Below, in pieces: positions 1,498-27,167 of a stretch of 64,000 nucleotides of DNA. Source of the DNA: Candidatus Limnocylindria bacterium (GTDB lineage Bacteria > Chloroflexota > Limnocylindria > QHBO01). The stretch spans positions 20,372-84,371 of the forward strand of contig JBBQGI010000001.1 of the NCBI GenBank assembly GCA_038322875.1, read 5' to 3'. Each line of letters starts with the position of its first letter. Within the stretch, counting starts at the first letter, position 1. A program made the translations under genes and the position numbers. The notes under the pieces are model-generated. The model worked only from the letters and a program-made list of their open reading frames with translations. It was not told the origin of the DNA and made no database searches.

Positions 1498-2736
1498 TCA
1501 GGCGGGAGGCAGCCCTCCGGAGGCCGGATAGCGCCGGCCGACATATTCCTCGAGGATTTCCAGGAAGCGCGGCACGATGTCGTCGCCGCGCAGCGTCGTG
1601 CTGAGCTTGCCTTCGACGAAGACCGGCGCCACCGGCTCCTCGAAGGTGCCGGGCAGGCTGATCCCGATGTCGGCGTGCTTGCTCTCGCCCGGCCCGTTGA
1701 CCACGCAGCCCATCACCGCCACCCGCAGCTCTTCGACGCCGGGGTGCTGACGGCTCCAGATCGGCATCTGATCGTGCAGGTACGCGCCGATGTCCCGGGC
1801 CATCTCCTGGAAAAAGGTCGAGGTGGTGCGGCCGCAGCCGGGGCACGCGCTGACCTGCGGGGTGAAGCTGCGCAGCCCAAGCGATTGAAGCACCTGCTGC
1901 GCGATCTGCACTTCCTCGGTGCGGTCGCCGCCGGGTGATGGCGTCAGGCTGACCCGGATCGTGTCGCCGATCCCGCGCTGCAGGAGGATGGCCAGGCCCG
2001 CGGTCGACGAGATGATGCCGCGAGAGCCCATCCCCGCCTCGGTCAATCCGAGGTGGAGCGGGTAGTCGCAGCGCTCGGAGAGCCGCTGGTAGACCTCGAT
2101 CAGGTCCTGGACGCCGCTCACCTTGGCCGACAGGACGATCCGGTCGTGTCCGAGGCCGGTCTCCTCGGCCAGTGCGGCCGAGCGCAGCGCGGACTCGAGC
2201 ATGGCGTCGATCATCACGTCGCGGGACTCGCGCGGCTCCGCCAGCCGGGCGTTGGCGTCCATCAGCTCGGTGAGGAGCTGCTGGTCGAGCGAGCCCCAGT
2301 TGACCCCGATGCGGACCGGCTTGCCATTCGCGATCGCCACCTCGACGATCTGGCGGAACTGTTCGTCGTGGCGCTTGGTCCCGACGTTCCCCGGATTGAT
2401 GCGGTACTTGGCCAGCGCCGCCGCGCAGTCGGGGTACTTCGTCAGCAGCAGGTGGCCGTTGTAGTGGAAGTCACCGATCAGGGGCACGCCCACCCCAAGG
2501 CGGTCGAGCTTCTCGCGGATGACCGGCACGGCGAGCGCCGCGGCGTCGTTGTTTACGGTCACCCGCACCAGCTCCGATCCGGCATGGGCCAGCTGGGCAA
2601 CCTGGATGGCGGTGCCATCGGCATCGGCGGTGTCGGTATTGGTCATCGACTGGACCACGATCGGATGCGCGGAGCCGATGAGCACGCCGCCCACGTCGAC
2701 GCTTGCCGTCGCATGTCGTTCGATCACGAAATGCAT
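1498..2736 (-). CDS. ispG: 4-hydroxy-3-methylbut-2-en-1-yl diphosphate synthase (MEP pathway)
   Basis: full-length similarity to GcpE/IspG (start MHFVIERH..., conserved C-terminal CPxCGR cluster region); ORF track start trimmed to first conserved Met. Confidence 0.95.
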
Positions 2737-2815
2737 CCTATCCGTTCCCAGACCGCGCGTCGTCCCGCGGGTACTTGCGCGTTTGCGCAAGTGTCGATAT
2801 ACTACACTCAAGGTC

Positions 2816-3820
2816 ATGACCGCAACGATTCGGCCCACAGCGGGCACGCCCGCCGACCAGCCAACCGACCTCCGTCATCACAAGCTCGCCATCATCGGTT
2901 CCGGGCCTGCGGGGCTGACCGCCGCCATCTATGCGGCACGCGCCAACCTGGAGCCGATGGTCTTCGCCGGCAACACGCCGCTCGGCCAACTGATGATCAC
3001 CTCGGAGGTCGAGAACTACCCCGGATTCCCCGGCGGGATCCTGGGCCCCGAGCTGATGCAGCTCTGGCGGGATCAGGCCGAGCGCTTCGGCAGCATCCTG
3101 CTCGACAAGGACGTCACCCGGGTCGACTTCAGTCAGCGCCCGTTCGGCCTGTGGGTCGGCGAGGACGAATACCGGGCCGATGCGGTCATTGTGGCCACCG
3201 GCGCGTCGGCCCTGTGGATGGGTCTGCCCTCCGAGGAGGAGTTCCGTGGCCGCGGTGTGAGCGCCTGCGCCACGTGTGACGGCTTCTTCTTCCGCGACCG
3301 GGAGATCGCGGTCGTGGGCGGTGGCGATACCGCGCTCGAAGAGGCGCTCTTCCTGACCAGGTTCGCCTCGAAGGTGACCATGCTCGTGCGCCGCGACCAA
3401 TTCCGCGGCAGCAAGATCATGCAGGACCGCGCCTTCGCTCACCCCAAGATCGACGTGCGCTGGAACACCGAGGTGACCGATGTCCGCGGCGAGATGACGG
3501 TCAACGGGCTCGGGCTGCGCGACACCGTCACCGGCGAGTCCTCCGACCTCGGCGTGCAGGGGCTCTTCGTCGCCATCGGCTACAAGCCGAACACCGATCT
3601 GTTCGCCGGTCAGCTTGACCTCGACCCGCGCGGCTATTGCATGGTCGACGCCGGCACGCGCACCAGGATCGAGGGTGTCTTCGTGGCCGGCGACGTCCAC
3701 GATCACGTCTACCGCCAGGCGGTCACCGCCGCCGGCGATGGCTGCCGGGCCGCAATCGACGCGGAGCGCTGGCTCGCGTCGATCGGCGAGGTCCAGGCGT
3801 CGACCGCGACCAACTGGTAG
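2816..3820 (+). CDS. trxB: thioredoxin-disulfide reductase
   Basis: FAD motif GSGPAG, redox CATCDG motif, NADPH motif GGGDTA; 335 aa; divergent from ispG. Confidence 0.95.
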
Positions 3821-16150: not shown

Positions 16151-16788
16151 CACGAGAAGTGCTCGACCACCGTGGCCGCAAGGGCCTCGATCCCGCGCCG
16201 GTGCACCGTCACCCGATGCGCAACGCCGCATACCTCGGGGCGGTAGAGGCCGCTCACCTTGTGCGGGAGGGGGGTCGGTGCCCAGATGACCAGCAGATCC
16301 GCCCAGGCGCAGTCCCGCAGCGCGTCTGAGCCGTTCGGCAGGTTGCTCGTGCCGTCCACGAATCGCAATTCGAAGGCCCGACCGACGATCGCTTCGATCT
16401 CCGCGTACATGGGCGGACGGCCGCCTACCACCAGGATGCGGCGGATGCCGGCAGCGGTGCAGACCAACTCCATGTGTCGCAGGGCACGCGTGTTGTTGGA
16501 GCCCGAACAGACCGAGCAGCGCGCACGTTCGACCTCGACCGGCGCGCGCCCGTCATCGACCAGCGCGGCGATGCACGTCGGATCGGCGCAGTGGCGGACC
16601 AGCGAATGCCCGATCACGTCGCGTGCCCGATCGAGCTTTTCATTGGCGATGCGGACCTTGCCCGGCCGTGTCAGGCCGGCCTCTTCCAGTGCTCTGCGGC
16701 CGGCCGCCAGGGCAGCGGTCGACCGAAATCCAACTCCCCGCAGGAGATCGGCGATCGCGGTGTCTGCCATGGCCCCATTGTCGAGCAT
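16150..16788 (-). CDS. hypothetical protein with Cys4 motif and DUF2325-like C-terminal domain
   Basis: HCADPTC...CSVCSG cysteine pairs; C-terminal VVGGRP...LLVIWAPT...H pattern; translationally coupled to M15 gene. Confidence 0.5.
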   Translation of the reverse strand: MLDNGAMADTAIADLLRGVGFRSTAALAAGRRALEEAGLTRPGKVRIANEKLDRARDVIGHSLVRHCADPTCIAALVDDGRAPVEVERARCSVCSGSNNTRALRHMELVCTAAGIRRILVVGGRPPMYAEIEAIVGRAFELRFVDGTSNLPNGSDALRDCAWADLLVIWAPTPLPHKVSGLYRPEVCGVAHRVTVHRRGIEALAATVVEHFS

Positions 16789-16841
16789 CGGCAGATCGAG
16801 GACGCGATCCAGGTCAGTGGAGGGCCTTACACTCAGCCACC

Positions 16842-18059
16842 GTGAACCTCACGACCGACGGGCGGCTCCTCTTCGCCACCCGCATCGCCCGCATGTTCGG
16901 CTACGGGCTCCTCTCCGTCGTGCTCGTCCTCTACCTCGTGGAGCTCGGCATCGACGGCGTGGCGGTTGGTCTGATCCTGACTCTCACCCTGCTCGGCGAC
17001 GCGGCGATCAGCCTGTGGCTGACCACCCACGCCGATCGGCTCGGCCGGAGGCGGATCCTGATCGCCGGCGCCGGCCTGATGCTCCTCGCCGGCATCGTCT
17101 TCGCGGTCGCGCGCGACCCCTGGATCCTCCTCATCGCCGCGACCATCGGCGTTATCAGCCCCAGCGGCAACGAGGTCGGGCCGTTCCTGGCGGTTGAGCA
17201 GGCGTCGCTCACCCAGATGCTCCCCGATCGGGAGCGGACGCGCGTCTTCGGCTGGTACAACCTCGCCGGGTCGCTGGCCACCGCCGCCGGCGCCCTCGCG
17301 GCGGGGTTCATCGCTCAGGCGCTGCTGGGCACCGGCGCCAGCGAGATCGACTCCTACCGGGCGATCGTGATCACCTATGCGCTGGTCGGGATCGTCCTGG
17401 CCGGCCTCTTCTCGCGGCTCTCGCCGGCGATCGAGGTCGCCAGCGCGCCCAGCACCTCCGTCGCCACCCGGCTGGGACTGCATCGGTCCCGCGGGATCGT
17501 GCTGCGACTGTCGGCGCTCTTCTCGCTCGATGCCTTCGCCGGCGGCTTCGTGATGCAGTCCCTGATCGCCTACTGGTTCAACCAGCGCTTCGGGGCCGAC
17601 CCGGCCACGCTTGGTGCGATCTTCTTCGGGGCGAACATCCTGGCCGGCGTCTCGGCGCTCGCCGCCGCGCGGTTGGCCGCGCGCATCGGTCTGATCAACA
17701 CCATGGTCTTCACGCACCTCCCCTCGAACGTGCTCCTGATCCTGGTGCCGCTGATGCCCACCCTGCCACTGGCGATTGGCGTCCTGCTGGCCCGGTTCGC
17801 GATCAGCCAGATGGACGTGCCGACCCGCCAGTCCTACACGATCGCGGTGGTGGAGCCCGATGAGCGCTCGGCGGCGGCCGGCGTGACCGGCATCGCTCGC
17901 AGCCTGGGGGCAGCCGTCTCCCCGTCGCTCGCCACGCCGCTCCTGCAGAGCGTGCCCCTGGCGGGTCTGCCGTTCATCATCGGTGGGGGACTGAAGATCG
18001 TGTACGACTTGCTGGTGCTGCGCGCATTCAGCGCAGTGCGCCCGCCCGAGGAGCGTTGA
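16842..18059 (+). CDS. MFS transporter
   Basis: 12 TM helices, MFS D-R-x-G-R-R loop (HADRLGRRR); GTG start chosen after divergent gene. Confidence 0.8.
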   Translation: MNLTTDGRLLFATRIARMFGYGLLSVVLVLYLVELGIDGVAVGLILTLTLLGDAAISLWLTTHADRLGRRRILIAGAGLMLLAGIVFAVARDPWILLIAATIGVISPSGNEVGPFLAVEQASLTQMLPDRERTRVFGWYNLAGSLATAAGALAAGFIAQALLGTGASEIDSYRAIVITYALVGIVLAGLFSRLSPAIEVASAPSTSVATRLGLHRSRGIVLRLSALFSLDAFAGGFVMQSLIAYWFNQRFGADPATLGAIFFGANILAGVSALAAARLAARIGLINTMVFTHLPSNVLLILVPLMPTLPLAIGVLLARFAISQMDVPTRQSYTIAVVEPDERSAAAGVTGIARSLGAAVSPSLATPLLQSVPLAGLPFIIGGGLKIVYDLLVLRAFSAVRPPEER

Positions 18060-18067
18060 CCGCACGC

Positions 18068-19156
18068 TCAGCTTTGGATCGGCGGCCCATACCAGACGCT
18101 GGCCGCGATGATGACGTACAGGCCCAGCAGCGCCAGCCCCTCGAGCCAGGTGCTCTCGCCGTCGAAGACGATCAGGGCCGCCAGGATGGCGGACAGGGCC
18201 ACCGCCCCCAGGAGCAGCGGGCTCAACACCAGCGTCAGCCCGCCGCCGATGACCAGCGAGATGAGAACCAGCACCGGCGTCAGGGCGATGGCGACCTGCA
18301 GGCTGCTGTTCAGGATCAAGCTGGCCGCCAGGTCCGCCTTGTTCCGAATCGCCATCTGCACGCCGACCACGTTCTCGACCGCGTTGCCGGCGATGGCGAC
18401 CACGACCAGTCCGACGAACGCCTCGGAGATGCGCAGGCTGGCCATGGTGGGCCGCAGCGCCTCGACGAAGAGATCCGAGGTCAGTGCAGCGCCCCCTGCG
18501 CCGAGGAACAGCACTGCCAGCGTGAGCCCCAACGGCCAGACCGATTCGGGCGCCGTCTCCTCGACCCCTGCGCTGGCACCCACGCCGCCCCCGATCGAGA
18601 AGGGGATCGAGGCCGCGAAGATGACCAGCAGCACGATCGAGACGATCACGCTCAGGTCGGTGGCGTGCCCCGCGTCGGGGGCGCCGGGGGCGGTGGCCAA
18701 GGTGGGGATCGCCAGGGCGGCAACGGCCAGCACCAGGAGGGTGGCCATGCTCCGCACCGCCGGCGCGTGGAACTGCTGGGTGCCGTGCTTCAGGCCGCCG
18801 AGGAAGAAGGCGAGCCCAAGGACGAGCAGCGTATTAGCCAGGATCGAGCCGATGAGGGCGGTCTGGACGACGACCACCAGGCCCGCCTGCAGGGCGAAGA
18901 TCGAGATGAAGAGCTCCGGCAGGTTGCCGAGCGCCGACTGCAGGATGCCGGTCGTCCGCGGCCCGAACCGATGTCCGAGCTGCTCCGTCCCACGGCCGAT
19001 CAGCACCGCCAGCCCGGCGAGGGCGGCCGCCGCCACCACGAAGACCACGGTCTGGCTGGCCCCGATGGCGTTGAGCGCAAAGGCAAGTGCCGCGGTACCG
19101 AGCGACAGGACCGCGGTGAGGGTCGTCGTGCGCCCCAGCCGAGCCAGCATCTTCAT
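18068..19156 (-). CDS. Ca2+/cation antiporter (CaCA family, ChaA/CAX-like)
   Basis: two alpha-repeat regions (GNxxE) and 11 TM topology; GGAGGAGG RBS before ATG at 19156. Confidence 0.85.
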   Translation of the reverse strand: MKMLARLGRTTTLTAVLSLGTAALAFALNAIGASQTVVFVVAAAALAGLAVLIGRGTEQLGHRFGPRTTGILQSALGNLPELFISIFALQAGLVVVVQTALIGSILANTLLVLGLAFFLGGLKHGTQQFHAPAVRSMATLLVLAVAALAIPTLATAPGAPDAGHATDLSVIVSIVLLVIFAASIPFSIGGGVGASAGVEETAPESVWPLGLTLAVLFLGAGGAALTSDLFVEALRPTMASLRISEAFVGLVVVAIAGNAVENVVGVQMAIRNKADLAASLILNSSLQVAIALTPVLVLISLVIGGGLTLVLSPLLLGAVALSAILAALIVFDGESTWLEGLALLGLYVIIAASVWYGPPIQS

Positions 19157-19301
19157 CCTCCTCCGGCAGCCCTCCGTCCTGCGGCGCTCGCAGCGGGCGA
19201 AGTGTAACGCCCAGGTTGGTCCTGTCCGCCGCTTGTGGATTGACACGGCGCCCTCGCGGGCGGCATGGTTGCCGGCCAGAACGTGGGAGATTGGGGTCGC
19301 C

Positions 19302-19997
19302 GTGCCGGACCAGGAATTCGTGACCCAGAGCCTGCGACGCTGCGCCCTCTTCGCGCATGTCGAGCCGGCTGGACTGAGCGTGCTGGCGAACGCCATGGTG
19401 CGGCGTCGCTTTCGGCGCAACGAGGTGATCTTCCACCAGGGAGATCCGGGCGACTCGCTGCACGTCGTGGCCACCGGTGCGGTGAAGATCGTGCTGCCGT
19501 CGCCGGGCGGTGACGAGGCGATCATCGCCACGCTGCAACCGGGCGACTTCTTCGGCGAGCTGGCCCTGCTCGATGGTGCGCCGCACTCGGCCACGGCGAC
19601 GGCCGTCGAACCGGTCGAGACGCTCAGTCTCGCCCGAGCCCCGTTCCATCACCTCCTCGACGAGGACCGGGGGCTGCGCATTGCGCTGCTCTCCGGCCTG
19701 GCCGCCGAGCTGCGCCGCCTCACCGGCCACGTGGAGGAGCTGCACTTCCTGGATCTTGCTGGGCGCCTCGCGATGCGCCTGGTGCGGCTCGCGCGTGAGC
19801 GGGACCCCGGCGTCGAGCACGAGGTGCGCCTCGATTGGCCGTTCACACAGACCGATCTGGCGGCTATGATCGGCGGCACACGGCAGAGCGTGAACAAGCT
19901 GCTCAGCCGACTGGTCGAGGATGGGCTTCTCGTCATCGAGCACGACACGCTGGTGATCCGCGACGTGCAGGCGCTGGCGGAACGGGCAGAGCGGTGA
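19302..19997 (+). CDS. Crp/Fnr family transcriptional regulator
   Basis: N-terminal cNMP-binding fold (FGELALLDG...A.A), C-terminal HTH (TRQSVNKLLSRLVEDGLL). Confidence 0.85.
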   Translation: MPDQEFVTQSLRRCALFAHVEPAGLSVLANAMVRRRFRRNEVIFHQGDPGDSLHVVATGAVKIVLPSPGGDEAIIATLQPGDFFGELALLDGAPHSATATAVEPVETLSLARAPFHHLLDEDRGLRIALLSGLAAELRRLTGHVEELHFLDLAGRLAMRLVRLARERDPGVEHEVRLDWPFTQTDLAAMIGGTRQSVNKLLSRLVEDGLLVIEHDTLVIRDVQALAERAER

Positions 19998-20004
19998 GGC
20001 TCGA

Positions 20005-20020
20005 TGTCGGCAAATCGACA
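20005..20020. promoter_or_regulatory. CRP-like palindromic box TGTCGgcaaatCGACA
   Basis: perfect 5-N6-5 inverted repeat with the same spacing as the TGTGA-N6-TCACA CRP site, 8 nt after the Crp-family gene stop and ~110 nt upstream of next operon. Confidence 0.4.
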
Positions 20021-20132
20021 GAAAAAGGGTCGCGGACGGGATTCTCGTTTCTGAAGGGCGGACATATCGTTCGGATCAACGACGCTCACAACCTAGATGA
20101 GCGTGGACAACCAGATCGAGAGGTTCAAGGTC

Positions 20133-20408
20133 ATGTCTGAGCAGGATCCCAAGGACACCGAGGGACATAAGAAGACCCCATCGGCTTCCGGAGACGACAC
20201 CGAGGGCCATAAGCACACCCCGTGGTCGGCGACCGACGAGGACACCGAGGGTCACAAGCACACCCCATCGGCGTCGGATGACGACACCGAGGGCCACAAG
20301 CACACCCCATCGGCGAGCGACGACGACACCGAGGGCCACAAGCACACCCCGTGGTCGGCCAGCGACGACGACGACACCGAGGGCCACAAGCACCAGCCGG
20401 ACGCGTAA
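20133..20408 (+). CDS. small acidic His-rich tandem-repeat protein (six TEGHK[HK]TP repeats)
   Basis: ORF with GAGAGG SD-like sequence; six near-identical 14-15-aa repeats; stop abuts start of GAF gene (TAAATG). Confidence 0.6.
   Translation: MSEQDPKDTEGHKKTPSASGDDTEGHKHTPWSATDEDTEGHKHTPSASDDDTEGHKHTPSASDDDTEGHKHTPWSASDDDDTEGHKHQPDA
20155..20400 (+). repeat. in-frame ~42-45 bp tandem repeats (gacaccgagggccacaagcacacccc...)
   Basis: six direct repeats visible at nucleotide level. Confidence 0.85.
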
Positions 20409-21185
20409 ATGGTCGGGGATGACCACCTGACCGCCGCGCTCACTGCCCTCAGGGCGGTGGCGCGGCGGTCTTCTGTTGCGCGCAGGCTGCAGGGCGACGC
20501 CGAGGAGCGGCTCCTGCAATCGATCGTGGATGCCACGGCCAGCCTCTTCGATGCCGAGGCCTCTTCGATCGCCCTCTTCGAGAGCGATCCGGATCGGCTC
20601 GAATTTCGCGTTGCCGCCGGAGCCCAGGGCGCCGGCGCGGTCGGCCTGCAGGTCAAGCCGACCGAGGGGATCGCCGGGTTCGTCTTCTCGACGGGTCAGG
20701 CGCTGGCGCTGACCGATGTCGCCTCGGACCCTCGCTTCGACATCCAGGCCGCGAAGAAGACCGGGTACGTCCCGCGCTCGATTGCGGCGGTTCCGCTCCT
20801 GGACGACGACGGATCGGTCGGCGTCCTCCAGGTCCTCGACAAGCGTGGATCGCCGAGCTTCTCGCTGCGCGACATGGAGCTGCTGGCGATCTTCGCCCGG
20901 CAGGCAACGACGGCGATCACCGCGACCCGCGTGCAGCGCGACACCGGCCGAATGCTCGGCGAGGTGCTCCGCCAGATCGCGGACCAGTCATTGACCGACG
21001 ATCAGGTCGAAGCCCTGGTCTCAGACGCGACGCGCGACCTCGACGACAGGCCGGAGTCGCCCTTCTGGGAGCTCGTCAACCACGTTGCCGTGCTGCGCAG
21101 CCTGGGCGAGCGCGACCTCGCGCTGGTGAGCGAGATCCTCGCAGTGGTGGCGCGGCACGCGCAGCGATCCCGTCGACGAGCGTGA
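20409..21185 (+). CDS. GAF domain protein
   Basis: single GAF fold (~150 aa) plus ~90-aa helical tail; no output domain. Confidence 0.8.
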   Translation: MVGDDHLTAALTALRAVARRSSVARRLQGDAEERLLQSIVDATASLFDAEASSIALFESDPDRLEFRVAAGAQGAGAVGLQVKPTEGIAGFVFSTGQALALTDVASDPRFDIQAAKKTGYVPRSIAAVPLLDDDGSVGVLQVLDKRGSPSFSLRDMELLAIFARQATTAITATRVQRDTGRMLGEVLRQIADQSLTDDQVEALVSDATRDLDDRPESPFWELVNHVAVLRSLGERDLALVSEILAVVARHAQRSRRRA

Positions 21186-22060
21186 GTGGCCTCGACCTTC
21201 CGGCATGGACCGAGCCGTTCACCAATGTCCCTGGTCTCGCGCGGCGGATGCGACTGCGAGGCATCTCGCGTGACTGGGCATGGGGCGGGGCGACCGGCAA
21301 GGGGGTCCGCGTCGGCATCATCGACAGCGGACTGGAGACCGATCATCCCCGCCTCGCGGGCAGGGTGGTGCAGAGCGTCGCCGCCGAGCTGACGGAGGGG
21401 GATCCTGATCCGTACATCGTGCCCGACACGAGTGGCGACCTCTACGGTCACGCCACCGCCTGCGGCGGCATCATCCTGGGACTTGCGCCCGAGGTCGAGC
21501 TGATCTCGATCCGGGTCCTCGGCGCGGACCTGCGGGGCAAGGGCACGGCCTTTGCGGCCGGCCTCGAGTGGGCGATCGAGCAGGGCATCAACGTGCTCAA
21601 CCTGAGCCTTTCGTCGAAGAGCGAGGCGCTCTTCCCCGTCTTCCACGACCTGGTCGACCGCGCCTACTTCCGCGGCGTCAACCTCGTGAGCGCGGCGAAC
21701 AACGTGCCCGCGGCGAGCTATCCGTCGCTCTTCTCATCGGTCTTCTCCGTGGCGGCTCACGGCGAGCCCGACCCGTGGCGCCTCTACTACAACCCCGCCC
21801 CGCCGGTCGAGTTCGGAGCATGGGGCGTGGACGTGCCGATCGCCTGGAAGGACGGCGGCTCGACCGTGGCGACCGGCAACAGCTTCGCCGCACCGCATGT
21901 CGCGGGCATGGTGGCGCTGATCCTGTCGAAGCACCCGGGCCTGACGCCGTTCGAGGTGAAGGCGGTCCTCGCCGCGATCGCCAACAACCCCCGGCGGGTG
22001 AATGCCCCGCAGAAGGAGGACGCTAGCTCGCTGCGTGCTCCCGGCGGTGGAGGCGCTTGA
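21182..22060 (+). CDS. S8 family subtilisin-like serine peptidase, no signal peptide (cytoplasmic)
   Basis: catalytic triad motifs GIIDSG (Asp), HATACGG (His), GNSFAAPHVAG (Ser); GTGA overlap with GAF gene. Confidence 0.9.
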   Translation: MSGLDLPAWTEPFTNVPGLARRMRLRGISRDWAWGGATGKGVRVGIIDSGLETDHPRLAGRVVQSVAAELTEGDPDPYIVPDTSGDLYGHATACGGIILGLAPEVELISIRVLGADLRGKGTAFAAGLEWAIEQGINVLNLSLSSKSEALFPVFHDLVDRAYFRGVNLVSAANNVPAASYPSLFSSVFSVAAHGEPDPWRLYYNPAPPVEFGAWGVDVPIAWKDGGSTVATGNSFAAPHVAGMVALILSKHPGLTPFEVKAVLAAIANNPRRVNAPQKEDASSLRAPGGGGA

Positions 22061-22442
22061 TCAGCGCCTTCATGATCGGCACGGCCATTTGCGGATGCTC
22101 CTTGAGGAGCGCGGTGAACTCCCAGGAGACGAAGAGGATGCACTCCGTCTCCTCGATCGCCTTGACGCTCGCCGTACGCGGATGTTCCTCGATCAGCGCC
22201 AGCTCGCCGAAGAAATCTCCGGGGTAGAGCTCGCTCGGGGTCCGATCCTGGGCGCCGTCCTTCTCCGCTTCGGCCCGACCGCGCAGGATCACGTACAGGG
22301 CCGACGCCGGATCGTCCTGCCGAATGATCCATTCTCCGGCCGCATAGGTGCGCCGCACGCCCTGCTCTGCCAGTCGCTTGATGATCCTGTCATCAAGGTC
22401 ATGCAGCAGCGGGGCCGCAGCCAGGGTCTGCTCAAGGTCCAC
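22023..22442 (-). CDS. standalone cyclic nucleotide-binding (CNB) domain protein
   Basis: FGELALIEEHPRTASVKA signature; GTG start placed downstream of tRNA; convergent with S8 gene (38-nt overlap). Confidence 0.75.
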   Translation of the reverse strand: MDLEQTLAAAPLLHDLDDRIIKRLAEQGVRRTYAAGEWIIRQDDPASALYVILRGRAEAEKDGAQDRTPSELYPGDFFGELALIEEHPRTASVKAIEETECILFVSWEFTALLKEHPQMAVPIMKALIKRLHRREHAAS

Positions 22443-22465
22443 GTTGACTCCCTCGGGTGCTTGTT

Positions 22466-22541
22466 TGGAGCGGGAGACGAGGTTCGAACTCGCGACATTC
22501 AGCTTGGAAGGCTGACGCTCTGCCAACTGAGCTACTCCCGC
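22466..22541 (-). tRNA. tRNA-Gly (anticodon TCC)
   Basis: reverse complement GCGGGAGTAGCTCAGTTGGCAGAGCGTCAGCCTTCCAAGCTGAATGTCGCGAGTTCGAACCTCGTCTCCCGCTCCA folds as cloverleaf with TCC anticodon, encoded CCA. Confidence 0.9.
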
Positions 22542-22657
22542 CCGGCTGATACACGAAGCATACCTGCTCGTCTGGCGGGGTCCGCCCAGTATCCTCTGCG
22601 CAGGTACGTGGCGCGAGTGACGATCCCCGCCCTACACTCCGCGCTCAGGAGGTGACC

Positions 22658-22720
22658 CGTGGCTGACAAGACGCCAAAGCGACCACCCAAGCCAAAGAAG
22701 CCCAAGAAGCCCAAGGTCTG
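22658..22720 (+). CDS. candidate 20-aa Lys/Pro-rich small ORF (V/MADKTPKRPPKPKKPKKPKV)
   Basis: GTG start 7 nt after AGGAGGTGA Shine-Dalgarno; lies between tRNA-Gly and pirin gene. Confidence 0.25.
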
Positions 22721-25067: not shown

Positions 25068-27167
25068 ATGGCTACCGCTGTGCCGCGGCCAACCGACGCG
25101 TCCCCGCTCGCCCGCCCCTGGCAGGCAGGCTCTGCCGCGGTCGCGCGCCGCTGGCAGCAAGCGGCCCTGCTGCACGATCCGTTCCTGCTCTACACCGCTG
25201 CGCTGGTCCCGGTCGCCCTGGCGGTGGCGCTGCTCTCGAAGCAGCCGCGCGACCTGCCCACTGTTGCCATACTGAGCCCGGTCGCCATCGGGCTGCAGGT
25301 CATCCTGGGTGCCATTCCGGCACGCTCCCGGCCGATGACCAAGCTCGGATGGTCCTTCCTGCGCCTTGCCGTGACCCTGCTCTACGTGGCCGGCCTGGCC
25401 GAGCTGGTCGGTGGGCCCACCCATCCCATGTTCGGCCTCTACGTGCCGGTGGTGGTGGCAGCAGCCGCGCTGGGCACCAGCCAGGCGGTGGTCATCGGTA
25501 CCGTCGCCTCCCTCATCTACCTGGCACCCGAGCTGACAATCCCGGGATCGCACGCCGATGTTGCCCTGCGGGGGATCACCCTGGCCGGGGTCAGCATCCT
25601 GGTCGCGATCGGTACGCGGCGCCTGGTGATCACGGTCGAGCAGACGTCCGACCAGCTGCGCGCGGCGATGGTCTCTGAGCGTCGGCGATCGAGTCAGATC
25701 GCCGGCATGGAGGCCGTCAGCCAGGTGCTTGTCTCCGGCGTGCCGACGGCGGAGATGCTCGACCACGCCCTGGGCGTGCTGGTCGAGGTCTTCAACTACC
25801 ACTACGTCTCGATCTACCTGGCCGATGGCGATCGGCTGGTGCTCGGCGCGCAGCGTGGCTACGAGAACCCGCGCCAGTCGTTCGACGGAACCGAGGGGGT
25901 CGTCGGGCGTGTCATGCGCGGCCACGAGCTGGCGTTCGTGCCGGATATCGGGCAGGACCCCGACTACGTCGAGGTCTACCACGAGGTGGTGAGCGAGATC
26001 TGCGCCCCCCTCGTCGACAACGGCGAGTTCCTGGGCATCCTGAACGTCGAGGCGCGCCTGCCGCTCGACCGAACCGATCGGGACCTGGTCGCCACCCTGG
26101 CGGGCCGCCTGGCGATGGTGGTCGCGCTCGGGCGCGACCGGCAGGCGCTCGGCGAGCGTGCCGCCATCCTCCGCAGCCTGAACGAATTCACCAATGCCGT
26201 CAGCGGCGAGCTGGAGATGGACCGCCTCGGCGCGGCGGTGGTGGATGCGGTCCGCACCGTGATCCCGGCCGACATCGTGGCTCTCACCGTCCTCGAGCGA
26301 GAGACCGGGCGCTACCTGCTGGCTGCGGCGACCGACGTCGACCCATCGGTCCTGGGGCGCGAGATCAAGCCGGGCGAGGGGCTCGCCGGGAGGGCGATCA
26401 GGGACCGCACCGTGGTCGTCGACGACCACTACGAGCGCAGCCATTTCCCGGCGTCCTACCGGGACGCGGTAGAGCCGGCCACGATGGTGGGTGCCGGCAT
26501 TCCGCTGACGCGCGAAGGCGTCGTGGTGGGAGCGCTGTCGATCGTGCGGCGCGATCGGGCACAGCTGTTCCGGCCGCTTGAGCACGAGGCGATGGAGCTG
26601 CTCGCGGGGCATGCCGCGCTCGCAATTTCGAACGCCTTCCTGCACGCAGAGGTCGGCCTGCTGGCCACCCACGACCCTTTGACGGGGCTCTACAACCGCC
26701 GCTACTTCGACGAGGCGCTGCGACGGGTGATCGCCACCTGGCGGCGCTCCCTGCGCGGCCAGCGGCACGTGGTTGCGGCGATCATGTTCGACCTCGACCA
26801 CTTCGGCGATTTCAACAAGCAGCACGGGCACCAGATCGGCGATGAGGTGCTGCGCACCTTCGCGGGCGTGCTGCGTCGGCGGTTCCGTGACGCCGACCTC
26901 GTGGCCCGCTTCGGGGGTGAGGAGTTCGTGGTGGTGCTCGAGGGCGCGACACGCGACGACGCCGTGCGGATCGCCGACGAGGTGCGGGCGGCGCTGGCCG
27001 ACAAGCCGGTGTTAGGCGACGATGGCGCTCGGCTGCTGGTCACGGTCTCCGCCGGCTGCGCCGAGATCGATGAGGCCGAGCCGACCGGCGAACAGCTGCT
27101 GCGGACCGCCGACGTCGCGCTCTTCATGGCCAAGCGCGCCGGGCGCAATCGGGTGGTGGCGGCCTAG
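25068..27167 (+). CDS. membrane sensor diguanylate cyclase (multi-TM + tandem GAF + GGDEF)
   Basis: N-terminal TM block, two GAF-like regions, C-terminal GGEEF motif (RFGGEEFVVVL). Confidence 0.9.
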   Translation: MATAVPRPTDASPLARPWQAGSAAVARRWQQAALLHDPFLLYTAALVPVALAVALLSKQPRDLPTVAILSPVAIGLQVILGAIPARSRPMTKLGWSFLRLAVTLLYVAGLAELVGGPTHPMFGLYVPVVVAAAALGTSQAVVIGTVASLIYLAPELTIPGSHADVALRGITLAGVSILVAIGTRRLVITVEQTSDQLRAAMVSERRRSSQIAGMEAVSQVLVSGVPTAEMLDHALGVLVEVFNYHYVSIYLADGDRLVLGAQRGYENPRQSFDGTEGVVGRVMRGHELAFVPDIGQDPDYVEVYHEVVSEICAPLVDNGEFLGILNVEARLPLDRTDRDLVATLAGRLAMVVALGRDRQALGERAAILRSLNEFTNAVSGELEMDRLGAAVVDAVRTVIPADIVALTVLERETGRYLLAAATDVDPSVLGREIKPGEGLAGRAIRDRTVVVDDHYERSHFPASYRDAVEPATMVGAGIPLTREGVVVGALSIVRRDRAQLFRPLEHEAMELLAGHAALAISNAFLHAEVGLLATHDPLTGLYNRRYFDEALRRVIATWRRSLRGQRHVVAAIMFDLDHFGDFNKQHGHQIGDEVLRTFAGVLRRRFRDADLVARFGGEEFVVVLEGATRDDAVRIADEVRAALADKPVLGDDGARLLVTVSAGCAEIDEAEPTGEQLLRTADVALFMAKRAGRNRVVAA

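Follow-up and report, generated by a model that had tools for sequence, protein, structure and literature searches.

Several known systems combine a subtilisin-like protease of the S8 family with a repetitive precursor or a small partner protein. Kex2-type precursors, such as yeast prepro-alpha-factor and the fungal ustiloxin precursor UstA, are well established. They contain near-identical short units separated by a conserved sequence, their copy number varies between species, and they are cut at dibasic sites in the secretory pathway, which they enter through a signal peptide, by a paired S8 protease, a kexin with a P-domain. In the cyanobactin system, the bacterial precursor PatE is built of repeated units with conserved sites flanking hypervariable segments, and S8 proteases (PatA and PatG) are encoded in the cluster. 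The small subtilase QhpE works in the cytoplasm on a single dedicated protein, the likewise small QhpC. In Myxococcus xanthus, the signal-peptide-less subtilase PopC is restrained by its co-encoded partner PopD and released by (p)ppGpp (PMC6434023). The locus described here lies in a 64,000-nucleotide stretch of DNA (hereafter the window) from Candidatus Limnocylindria bacterium (contig JBBQGI010000001.1). A small gene in the window encodes an acidic tandem-repeat protein, called here the EGH-repeat protein after its Glu-Gly-His motif, and is followed by the genes of a GAF-domain protein and an S8 protease. The EGH module works most like the subtilase-processed repeat precursors (alpha-factor/Kex2, UstA and cyanobactins), yet by the features and score cutoffs that define these systems it belongs to none of them. 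By analogy, it would be a dedicated protease and its repeat substrate under second-messenger control.

The differences from the known systems are as follows. The signal peptide, secretory route, dibasic sites and P-domain kexin of the Kex2 type are all missing from the module, and no KR or RR site occurs in the EGH-repeat protein of the window. In contrast to the Kex2 type, the module has an acidic conserved element (DDD-T/V-E-G-H) and, as its protease, a minimal subtilisin, predicted to be cytoplasmic, with a GAF partner and cyclic-nucleotide regulators; the processing is putative. The S8 protease scored 26.5 bits against the PatA/PatG model TIGR03895, whose cutoff is 421. No PatE-type leader is present, and no heterocyclase, macrocyclase, domain of unknown function (DUF) or prenyltransferase gene was found in the module, either in the window or in more than 100 related loci. 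Among the NCBIfam models, those of the mycosins (TIGR03921, 118.6 bits) and QhpE (NF049966, 101.8 bits) score best for the protease, but both scores are far below the cutoffs (278.75 and 165, respectively). The putative substrate is unrelated to QhpC, and neither a radical S-adenosylmethionine (radical-SAM) QhpD or QhpG gene nor type VII secretion/ESX genes were found near the cassette. PopC and PopD would be analogous in the subtilase without signal peptide, the co-encoded partner and the nucleotide second messenger. However, the partner is a different protein, the substrate CsgA p25 is not a repeat protein, and PopC is secreted.

The EGH-repeat protein of the window (MSEQDPKDTEGHKKTPSASGDDTEGHKHTPWSATDEDTEGHKHTPSASDDDTEGHKHTPSASDDDTEGHKHTPWSASDDDDTEGHKHQPDA) begins with M-SEQDPK, continues through six in-frame TEGH units, with GHKK in the first and GHKH in the other five, and ends with ...EGHKHQPDA (Table 1). 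The tandem repetition is far above the chance level: Tandem Repeats Finder detected a 42-nt period in 5.5 copies at 20152..20393 (82% matches, score 259) and an additional 87-nt period in the same segment (score 285). The six units differ synonymously (GGA/GGC/GGT, CAT/CAC and TCG/AGC). The protein contains 17 Asp, 8 Glu, 11 His and 8 Lys residues, which gives a pI of 4.66 and a net charge of about -16, and its N-terminus (M-S-E-Q) is acidic, without a hydrophobic core. The AlphaFold2 (AF2) model, predicted from the single sequence without an alignment, showed no secondary structure (predicted local distance difference test, pLDDT, 52; predicted template modelling score, pTM, 0.11), which is consistent with an intrinsically disordered protein. 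ATG 20133 is the likely start, because the upstream 'ERF' codons, which recur 5' of the start in relatives such as L012, L017, L025 and P0007 (L and P numbers are our handles for related loci and proteins), spell a Shine-Dalgarno-like GAGAGG. A longer start at ATG 20097 (in frame, 12 additional residues, 103 aa) is disfavoured by the position of this ribosome-binding site before ATG 20133. The stop codon TAA (20406-20408) directly abuts the ATG of the GAF gene (20409). No further motif-bearing open reading frame (ORF) was found elsewhere in the window.

The small protein belongs to an undescribed family, as judged by sequence searches. It matched no Pfam family at E≤0.01, no NCBIfam family at E≤1 and no entry in the PDB, in agreement with the preliminary description of the locus, in which no known family had been recognised. 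A word-indexed search of 5.8 billion proteins retrieved 168 small proteins of about 50-160 aa. None of the 120 listed homologs carried a precomputed Pfam domain, and they are called 'hypothetical protein' wherever they are named. An exhaustive phmmer search against 1.84 billion representatives gave 82 matches, among which no informative domain fusion was found. The top matches P0241, P0242, P0244 and P0250 were discarded as unrelated low-complexity proteins that match a KHTPS-like spacer, and P0272, a candidate fusion with a cyclic nucleotide monophosphate (cNMP)-binding domain, appears to be a Crp gene that continues into the repeat ORF. The small proteins of the window and of Nocardioides had no exact-sequence cluster in the collection searched. 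Literature searches on DTEGH/DVEGH motifs, on Chloroflexi multi-core precursors with subtilisin, on cNMP-MFS/GAF/subtilisin and on Nocardioides cAMP/subtilisin/GAF retrieved nothing relevant.

The family pattern was derived from 72 proteins with 355 motifs, which were collected from the protein search and from ORFs extracted from related loci. The core is A-x-D-D-D-D-[T 65% / V 31%]-E(98%)-G(99%)-H(100%), and the family-defining motif is [D/E]3-4-[T/V]-E-G-H. The conserved His is followed by G (27%), A (15%), K (14%), I (12%) or R (10%), and the 5-8 residues past EGH are variable, often basic or hydrophobic. Most repeat periods measure 13-18 residues (mode 15-16), the number of motif copies ranges from 2 to 10, and 55 of the 72 proteins have a tail of 4-6 residues past the last EGH. 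The spacers are near-identical within one protein and strongly divergent between proteins, even when the neighbouring S8 proteases are more than 85% identical. From these comparisons, the spacers appear as short, lineage-specific and usually basic segments. Thus the six-unit acidic repeat ORF next to GAF and S8 genes was correctly recognised in the preliminary description, but the unit is not built around GHKH as had been stated there: only [D/E]3-4-[T/V]-E-G-H is conserved, and GHKH, which had been taken for a metal-binding motif, is a clade-specific feature of the spacer. A His-cluster metal site is not a property of the family, because the residues after His vary and the His content falls from 12% in the window protein (8.8% in Nocardioides) to 4.8% in P0005.

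The repeat ORF is a real gene under protein-level constraint, because the amino acids of the motif are fixed while the codons vary, and because units are gained or lost in frame. In 204 DD[T/V]EGH motifs, Gly is encoded by GGC (144), GGT (49), GGG (7) and GGA (4), Glu by GAG (167) and GAA (37), and His by CAC (179) and CAT (25). In L092, whose GAF protein is 96% identical to that of the window, the repeat protein lacks exactly one 14-aa unit (5 versus 6 copies). Non-functional repeat DNA, which the preliminary description had kept in mind for the case of a hypervariable repeat number and an ORF absent from close relatives, is rejected on these data, since the copy number varies (2-10) always in frame and the ORF is kept in close and distant relatives. 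In four loci (L015, L041, L049 and L066; repeat region at about 2600..3230 in each), frameshifts split the array ORF into two frames. All four are long-read metagenome-assembled genomes of the MFD series. Because the frameshifts are confined to long-read assemblies, it is most likely that they arose during assembly or polishing of the repeats and do not mark pseudogenes.

Some variants of the repeat protein were also observed. In L021 (2799..3215), the spacer itself is a nested tandem repeat (A-H-K-P-T-S/A, 5-6 copies) with periods of about 35-40 residues, an extreme spacer expansion. One subtype carries a conserved basic C-terminal tail of about 45 aa ('...EGHSFLPNSPL-RELA--RE-DIRR-LK-RQ...HNKRGR') and occurs in P0024/L011 (6001..6387), L034 (minus strand), L101, L150, L157, L169, L171 and L174. 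Some of these copies adjoin Crp and/or cyclase genes; the copy in L174 precedes Crp-GAF-S8, and that in L011 has no module gene within 6 kb. In this subtype, the acidic repeats could serve as a pro-segment of the basic C-terminal peptide. A second motif-bearing type of about 250 aa has its gene no more than a few kb from the GAF-S8 cassette in L014 (about 2251..3003, minus strand), L022, L043 and L070, on the strand opposite to S8. Its 2-3 DDTEGH/DVEGH motifs lie in an apparently folded segment ('...DDTEGHAINVHFPTAAEADKFRRNLL'), after which come a transmembrane helix and a low-complexity tail. It could be a further client of the same S8 protease.

The genomic linkage of the repeat gene was analysed by an S8-anchored scan with one genome per species. 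By S8 alignment 214 genomes matched, and the best 80 loci were analysed; almost all of these are metagenome-assembled genomes of Candidatus Limnocylindria or other Chloroflexota, with S8 proteases 69-91% identical to that of the window. Clustering of neighbouring ORFs of at least 90 aa in the 80 loci was swamped by spurious antisense ORFs (70% GC), and targeted tblastn was used instead. A plus-strand EGH-repeat ORF directly 5' of the GAF gene, ending 775-812 nt before the S8 start, was found in 72 of the 75 loci with usable upstream DNA. Of these 72 ORFs, the contig end truncates 15, and the other 57 are complete. A GAF gene stands before S8 in 80 of 81 loci, and the conservation of GAF (70-72% identity) and S8 (75-81%) is much above that of the small protein. 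The three loci without a repeat ORF in cis (L069, Chloroflexi bacterium CSP1-4; L082; L088) still encode GAF and S8 with an intact catalytic set, and in L069 and L082 the Crp stop runs directly into the GAF start.

The gene upstream of the cassette is mostly a same-strand gene for a Crp-type regulator. It lies directly 5' of the repeat ORF or GAF in 47 of the 54 Limnocylindria loci with enough DNA, and in the remaining 7 the cassette has no Crp and is inserted between tig-clpP and clpX. Downstream of S8, the clade of the window has a convergent gene for a stand-alone cNMP-binding protein, and most other Limnocylindria have a same-strand MFS_3 transporter (major facilitator superfamily, MFS) fused to a cNMP-binding domain. 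The order in Limnocylindria is therefore Crp>repeat>GAF>S8(>MFS-cNMP). In L092, a class III nucleotidyl cyclase is encoded a few genes further along. The clade with the clp context comprises L001-L006, L009, L010, L020, L023, L024, L026 and L028-L031; Crp is absent and the palindromic box described below is mostly missing. Its cassette splits the usually contiguous clpP-clpX pair, and yjbR and an ogt-like gene lie on the other strand.

The space between the Crp stop and the repeat ORF contains the CRP/FNR-type palindrome TGTCGGCAAATCGACA (TGTCG-N6-CGACA), and this is its sole exact match in the 64-kb window. In 41 of 56 loci, the box lies at this intergenic position, and each locus has 0-3 further matches. 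It is absent from 6 of the 7 loci with the clpP/clpX context and no Crp, and L027 has a variant box. We infer from the sequence that the Crp-type regulator may bind this box.

The same genes are also linked, in other orders, in distant lineages. In L094 (74% GC, actinobacterial hrcA-dnaJ context), the order is MFS_3-cNMP, Crp (minus strand), GAF, S8 and, last, the repeat protein. In L095/L096 it is cyclase (minus), Crp (minus), repeat protein, MFS_3-cNMP, a 182-aa GAF-like protein and S8. These modules are diverged from that of the window (S8 56% and 51% identity; GAF 36% and 31%). With the L094 protease as query, orthologs were found in cultured Nocardioides. N. ginsengisegetis and Nocardioides sp. 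KIGAM211 encode MFS-cNMP, DZR-cyclase-AAA_16-TPR, Crp (minus), GAF, S8 and a repeat protein of 114 or 118 aa with 6-7 copies of (D/E)3-4-[V/T]-E-G-H-R-R. A motif-anchored metagenome scan with a degenerate DNA pattern matched at least 120 stretches; 80 loci were fetched, and 39 of them had at least 2 kb on one side. Among the matches listed, module genes were present in 28 of these 39 loci (S8 in 22, GAF in 23, Crp in 20, MFS in 11 and cyclase in 8), and a third clade with the order GAF>S8>Crp>repeat was found.

In the window and more than 100 related loci, the neighbours of the repeat gene are only Crp, GAF, S8, the cNMP-binding protein or MFS-cNMP, and cyclase. Because this linkage survives repeated rearrangement across two phyla, it is strong sequence-based evidence for a shared function. 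By their domains, up to five of the six module genes are predicted to make or sense a cyclic nucleotide. The adjacency of the GAF and S8 genes, pointed out in the preliminary description, is therefore meaningful and conserved across two phyla, and the repeat ORFs that it had suggested looking for next to S8/GAF in other genomes are present in 72 of the 75 assessable Limnocylindria loci and in other lineages.

The protease encoded by the module has the features of an active subtilase. It scored 95.4 bits against Pfam PF00082 (cutoff 21.8), its best PDB match is subtilisin BPN' (3e-26), and the alignment to BPN' places the Asp-His-Ser triad and the oxyanion Asn. Asp48, His90, Asn174 and Ser234 are intact in 109 of 109 family sequences covering these sites, including those of L069, L082 and L088. 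No hydrophobic N- or C-terminal segment was seen by eye in the 292 aa, and there is no I9 propeptide and no additional domain, so the protease was judged to be cytoplasmic, without a signal peptide. In the strand that pairs with the P side of the substrate, the residue equivalent to S101 of BPN' is R or K in 96 of 109 sequences and that equivalent to Q103 is K or R in 107 of 109. Because these positions are basic by homology to BPN', the protease may be suited to an acidic substrate. The S1 loop is shorter than in BPN', and G166 is replaced by Ser. The segment 'LPAW-EPF' (window 21182..21220) precedes the catalytic domain, and A8, W9 and F13 in this N-terminal segment are invariant across four diverged lineages. 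The Bacillus intracellular subtilisins are characterised by the lack of a signal peptide and I9 prodomain and by a short autoinhibitory N-terminal extension whose LIPY/F motif blocks the active site; 'LPAW-EPF' recalls this extension but is a different motif.

The S8 GTG start overlaps the GAF stop (GTGA), which suggests translational coupling of the two genes. The nearest solved relatives of the GAF protein in sequence and fold are 4mcw, CyaB2 (1ykd), Lcd1-cAMP (5w10) and the GAF domains of PDE2/5/6/10. The AF2 model (pLDDT 66.7; 70-89 in the GAF core) was confirmed as GAF class by a fold search, which also retrieved structures of PDE6 GAF domains together with Pgamma. By eye, a variant NKFDE signature (LDK...F...DME) was recognised. 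On sequence and model, the domain thus appears closest to the cAMP/cGMP-binding GAF domains.

Table 1. Features of the EGH module and the adjoining genes in the window (64,000 nucleotides; position 1 is the first letter)
Feature	Position	Strand	Description
Crp/Fnr-family regulator	19302..19997	+	231 aa, GTG start; Pfam cNMP_binding 2e-27, HTH_Crp_2 5e-16
CRP/FNR-type palindrome TGTCGGCAAATCGACA (TGTCG-N6-CGACA)	20005..20020		Between Crp stop and repeat ORF
Shine-Dalgarno-like GAGAGG	20118..20123	+	9 nt 5' of ATG 20133, read from sequence
EGH-repeat protein	20133..20408	+	91 aa, six units [D/E]2-4-T-E-G-H-K-(H/K)-T-P-(W)S-A-(S/T)
GAF-domain protein	20409..21185	+	258 aa; Pfam GAF 3e-18; N-terminal helix, GAF core, C-terminal helical region
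Subtilisin-family S8 serine protease	21182..22060	+	292 aa; GTG start; Pfam Peptidase_S8 5e-27
Stand-alone cNMP-binding protein	22023..22448	-	About 141 aa; Pfam cNMP_binding 2e-19; convergent with S8 gene
tRNA-Gly(TCC)	22466..22541	-	Overlapped by listed ORF 22023..22526 (-)

The stand-alone cNMP-binding protein probably starts at the GTG near 22448 (139 aa in L092), and orthologs lie at the same position in L012, L014, L015, L021, L022 and L092. No MFS-cNMP or cyclase homolog was found within the 64-kb window by tblastn. Just 5' of Crp are an MFS-type transporter (16623..18059, plus strand) and a Ca2+/H+ (Na_Ca_ex) exchanger (18068..19594, minus strand), an arrangement kept in L092. This transporter gave no tblastn match to the MFS_3-cNMP type of the other clades. 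About 3 kb from the module, an ORF at 25068..27167 (plus strand) translates into a large membrane-anchored protein with GAF-like regions and a GGEEF (diguanylate cyclase) motif. A scan of 19900..22700 for sigma-70 promoters and terminators gave nothing useful, and the tRNA-Gly was the only match in the Rfam and tRNA scans of the window.

We tentatively favour the reading, suggested by the sequence comparisons, that the EGH-repeat protein is a dedicated multi-site substrate or precursor of a cNMP-controlled cytoplasmic subtilase. The adjacent Crp-type regulator would bind the TGTCG-N6-CGACA box and induce the repeat-GAF-S8 operon on a cyclic nucleotide, which in other lineages would be made by the linked class III cyclase. 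The GAF protein would sense the same nucleotide as Crp and control the translationally coupled subtilase. The subtilase would then recognise each acidic EGH motif and cut the chain into peptides of about 14-16 aa or shorter, and in most lineages the neighbouring cNMP-gated MFS_3 transporter would handle the cleavage product. Crp binding, nucleotide sensing, cleavage and export are all steps that we infer.

The substrate reading draws on the constraint on the gene, its linkage and tight coupling, the intact catalytic set and basic substrate strand of the protease and the cyclic-nucleotide theme of the module, and further points argue for it. The invariant motif of 7-8 residues together with hypervariable spacers homogenised within each protein fits a recognition site and its payload, a pattern also shown by the known repeat precursors. 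The chain is probably accessible to a protease, because the AF2 model is disordered. Since the module puts out a disordered repeat protein together with a cytoplasmic protease and often a transporter, processing of the first by the second would be the most economical mechanism. The preliminary description had named three possible roles for the small protein (metal-binding or chaperone peptide, disordered regulator, and multi-core precursor processed by the subtilase); the last of them appears to fit the linkage and the motif pattern best.

Other observations weigh against a substrate. The module contains no modifying enzyme, and the clade of the window has no linked transporter or cyclase within 64 kb. 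L069, L082 and L088 keep an intact GAF-S8 pair without a repeat gene in cis, and because of these three loci the protease cannot depend solely on the repeat substrate. The repeat proteins start and end with half-spacers, with the tails of 4-6 aa past the last EGH, and such ends suit a motif that is the functional unit equally well as a motif that is the cut site. MFS transporters rarely move highly charged peptides of 15 residues. The quick divergence of the spacers could also be a result of relaxed constraint and concerted evolution.

Alternatively, the repeat protein may remain uncleaved and act as a multivalent disordered regulator or scaffold that uses its EGH motifs to bind the GAF protein, the subtilase or both. 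It would keep the protease inactive until the cyclic-nucleotide signal arrives, or tune the nucleotide affinity of the GAF domain. This is possible, though on the unlikely side. It draws on the same linkage and coupling as the substrate reading and on the predicted disorder, and it suits the conservation of the motif rather than the spacer and the protein ends that respect motif-centred units. GAF-S8 pairs without a repeat gene, as in the three loci, are what an accessory modulator would allow, and the fold search with the GAF protein retrieved PDE6 GAF domains in structures that contain Pgamma. Precedents are the disordered Pgamma, which acts on both the GAF and the catalytic domains of PDE6, and PopD, which restrains PopC. 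Pgamma would be an analogue as a disordered protein of about 87-91 aa that works with a cNMP-type GAF domain in the control of an enzyme; however, it is polycationic, non-repetitive and restricted to vertebrates, and its enzyme is a phosphodiesterase instead of a protease. A copy number of 2-10 that shifts between close relatives is unusual for a stoichiometric inhibitor, and the frequent MFS transporter is not explained by a regulator.

A metal binder or metallopeptide precursor is unlikely. The Asp/Glu/His motifs could make the protein a buffer or chaperone that chelates a divalent cation such as Ca, Zn, Ni or Cu. In a second version, a cut between [T/V] and E would expose NH2-Glu-Gly-His, a site of the amino-terminal Cu(II)- and Ni(II)-binding (ATCUN) type; the peptides at issue are Ac-DDDDTEGHKHTPSAS and, with a free N-terminus, EGHKHTPSASDDDDT. 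An ATCUN site is a free N-terminus followed by X-X-His, and the three invariant residues of the motif end exactly at His. Invariant Gly and Glu and an acidic run stand before the invariant His, the window variant has an extra His in each unit, an MFS_3-type transporter, whose Pfam family includes the siderophore exporter EntS, is often adjacent, and the Ca2+/H+ exchanger gene lies two genes 5' in the window and L092. However, this exchanger is not conserved beyond the clade of the window, which is also the only one with the GHKH cluster, and the family has one conserved His per about 15 residues, with 4.8% His in P0005. The module has no conserved gene for a metal regulator, metallochaperone or metal transporter, its conserved regulators all belong to the cyclic-nucleotide type, and simple chelation does not account for Thr/Val and Gly being so strictly conserved. 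Hpn-type His-rich proteins and ATCUN peptides resemble the family in the acidic and His residues of their short repeats, and E-G-H is an X-X-His sequence if N-terminal. They differ in that the EGH family has only 4.8-12% His, one conserved His per unit and no metal genes in the module, and the intact protein has no free X-X-His N-terminus.

A generic hydrophilin-like stress or desiccation protein, for which the adjacency of GAF-S8 would be mechanistically meaningless, is very unlikely. The protein is small, highly charged, repetitive and disordered, its hosts are soil organisms, and one clade has the cassette between clpP and clpX, but the linkage with S8, GAF and Crp has outlasted repeated changes of gene order in two phyla, a function that depends only on composition would not call for an invariant E-G-H, and KGG/GsiB and other stress-repeat families of Pfam gave no match. 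Non-coding repeat DNA, or a leader/attenuator peptide of the GAF-S8 operon, could be read from the variable copy number and the array frameshifts of four loci, but is effectively refuted by the synonymous codon changes around an invariant motif, the in-frame indels, the ribosome-binding site with translational coupling, the retention of the ORF in 72 of 75 loci and the Nocardioides copy, which cannot be a leader because it lies downstream of S8.

The substrate reading can be extended to a bacterial system of its own, so far unrecognised, in which ribosomal peptides are made on demand under cyclic-nucleotide control and then exported. We regard this extension as doubtful. The cyclase, Crp, GAF sensor and cNMP-gated MFS transporter would jointly govern a cytoplasmic subtilase that chops an acidic tandem-repeat precursor into short peptides that differ by lineage. 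Such peptides might act as signals, as X-X-His metal binders or as cationic effectors once released from their acidic pro-segments, and the system would be widespread in soil Chloroflexota and Actinomycetota.

The EGH family is unannotated yet common: 214 species-level genomes have the protease signature, and most of them belong to Candidatus Limnocylindria, a lineage of soil and freshwater that is represented here by metagenome-assembled genomes only. A cytoplasmic subtilase and a repeat protein as the output of a cyclic-nucleotide module have no described counterpart. If the repeat protein is an uncleaved regulator, it would be a bacterial case of a disordered repeat protein that controls a GAF-linked enzyme. 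If it is a processed precursor, it would represent a new route to bacterial peptide products or signals and give a physiological role to cAMP/cGMP signalling in Chloroflexota and Actinomycetota; if peptides are indeed made and exported, the cNMP-gated cytoplasmic architecture would be a new system. Because cultured Nocardioides strains carry the module, it is open to direct genetics and biochemistry.

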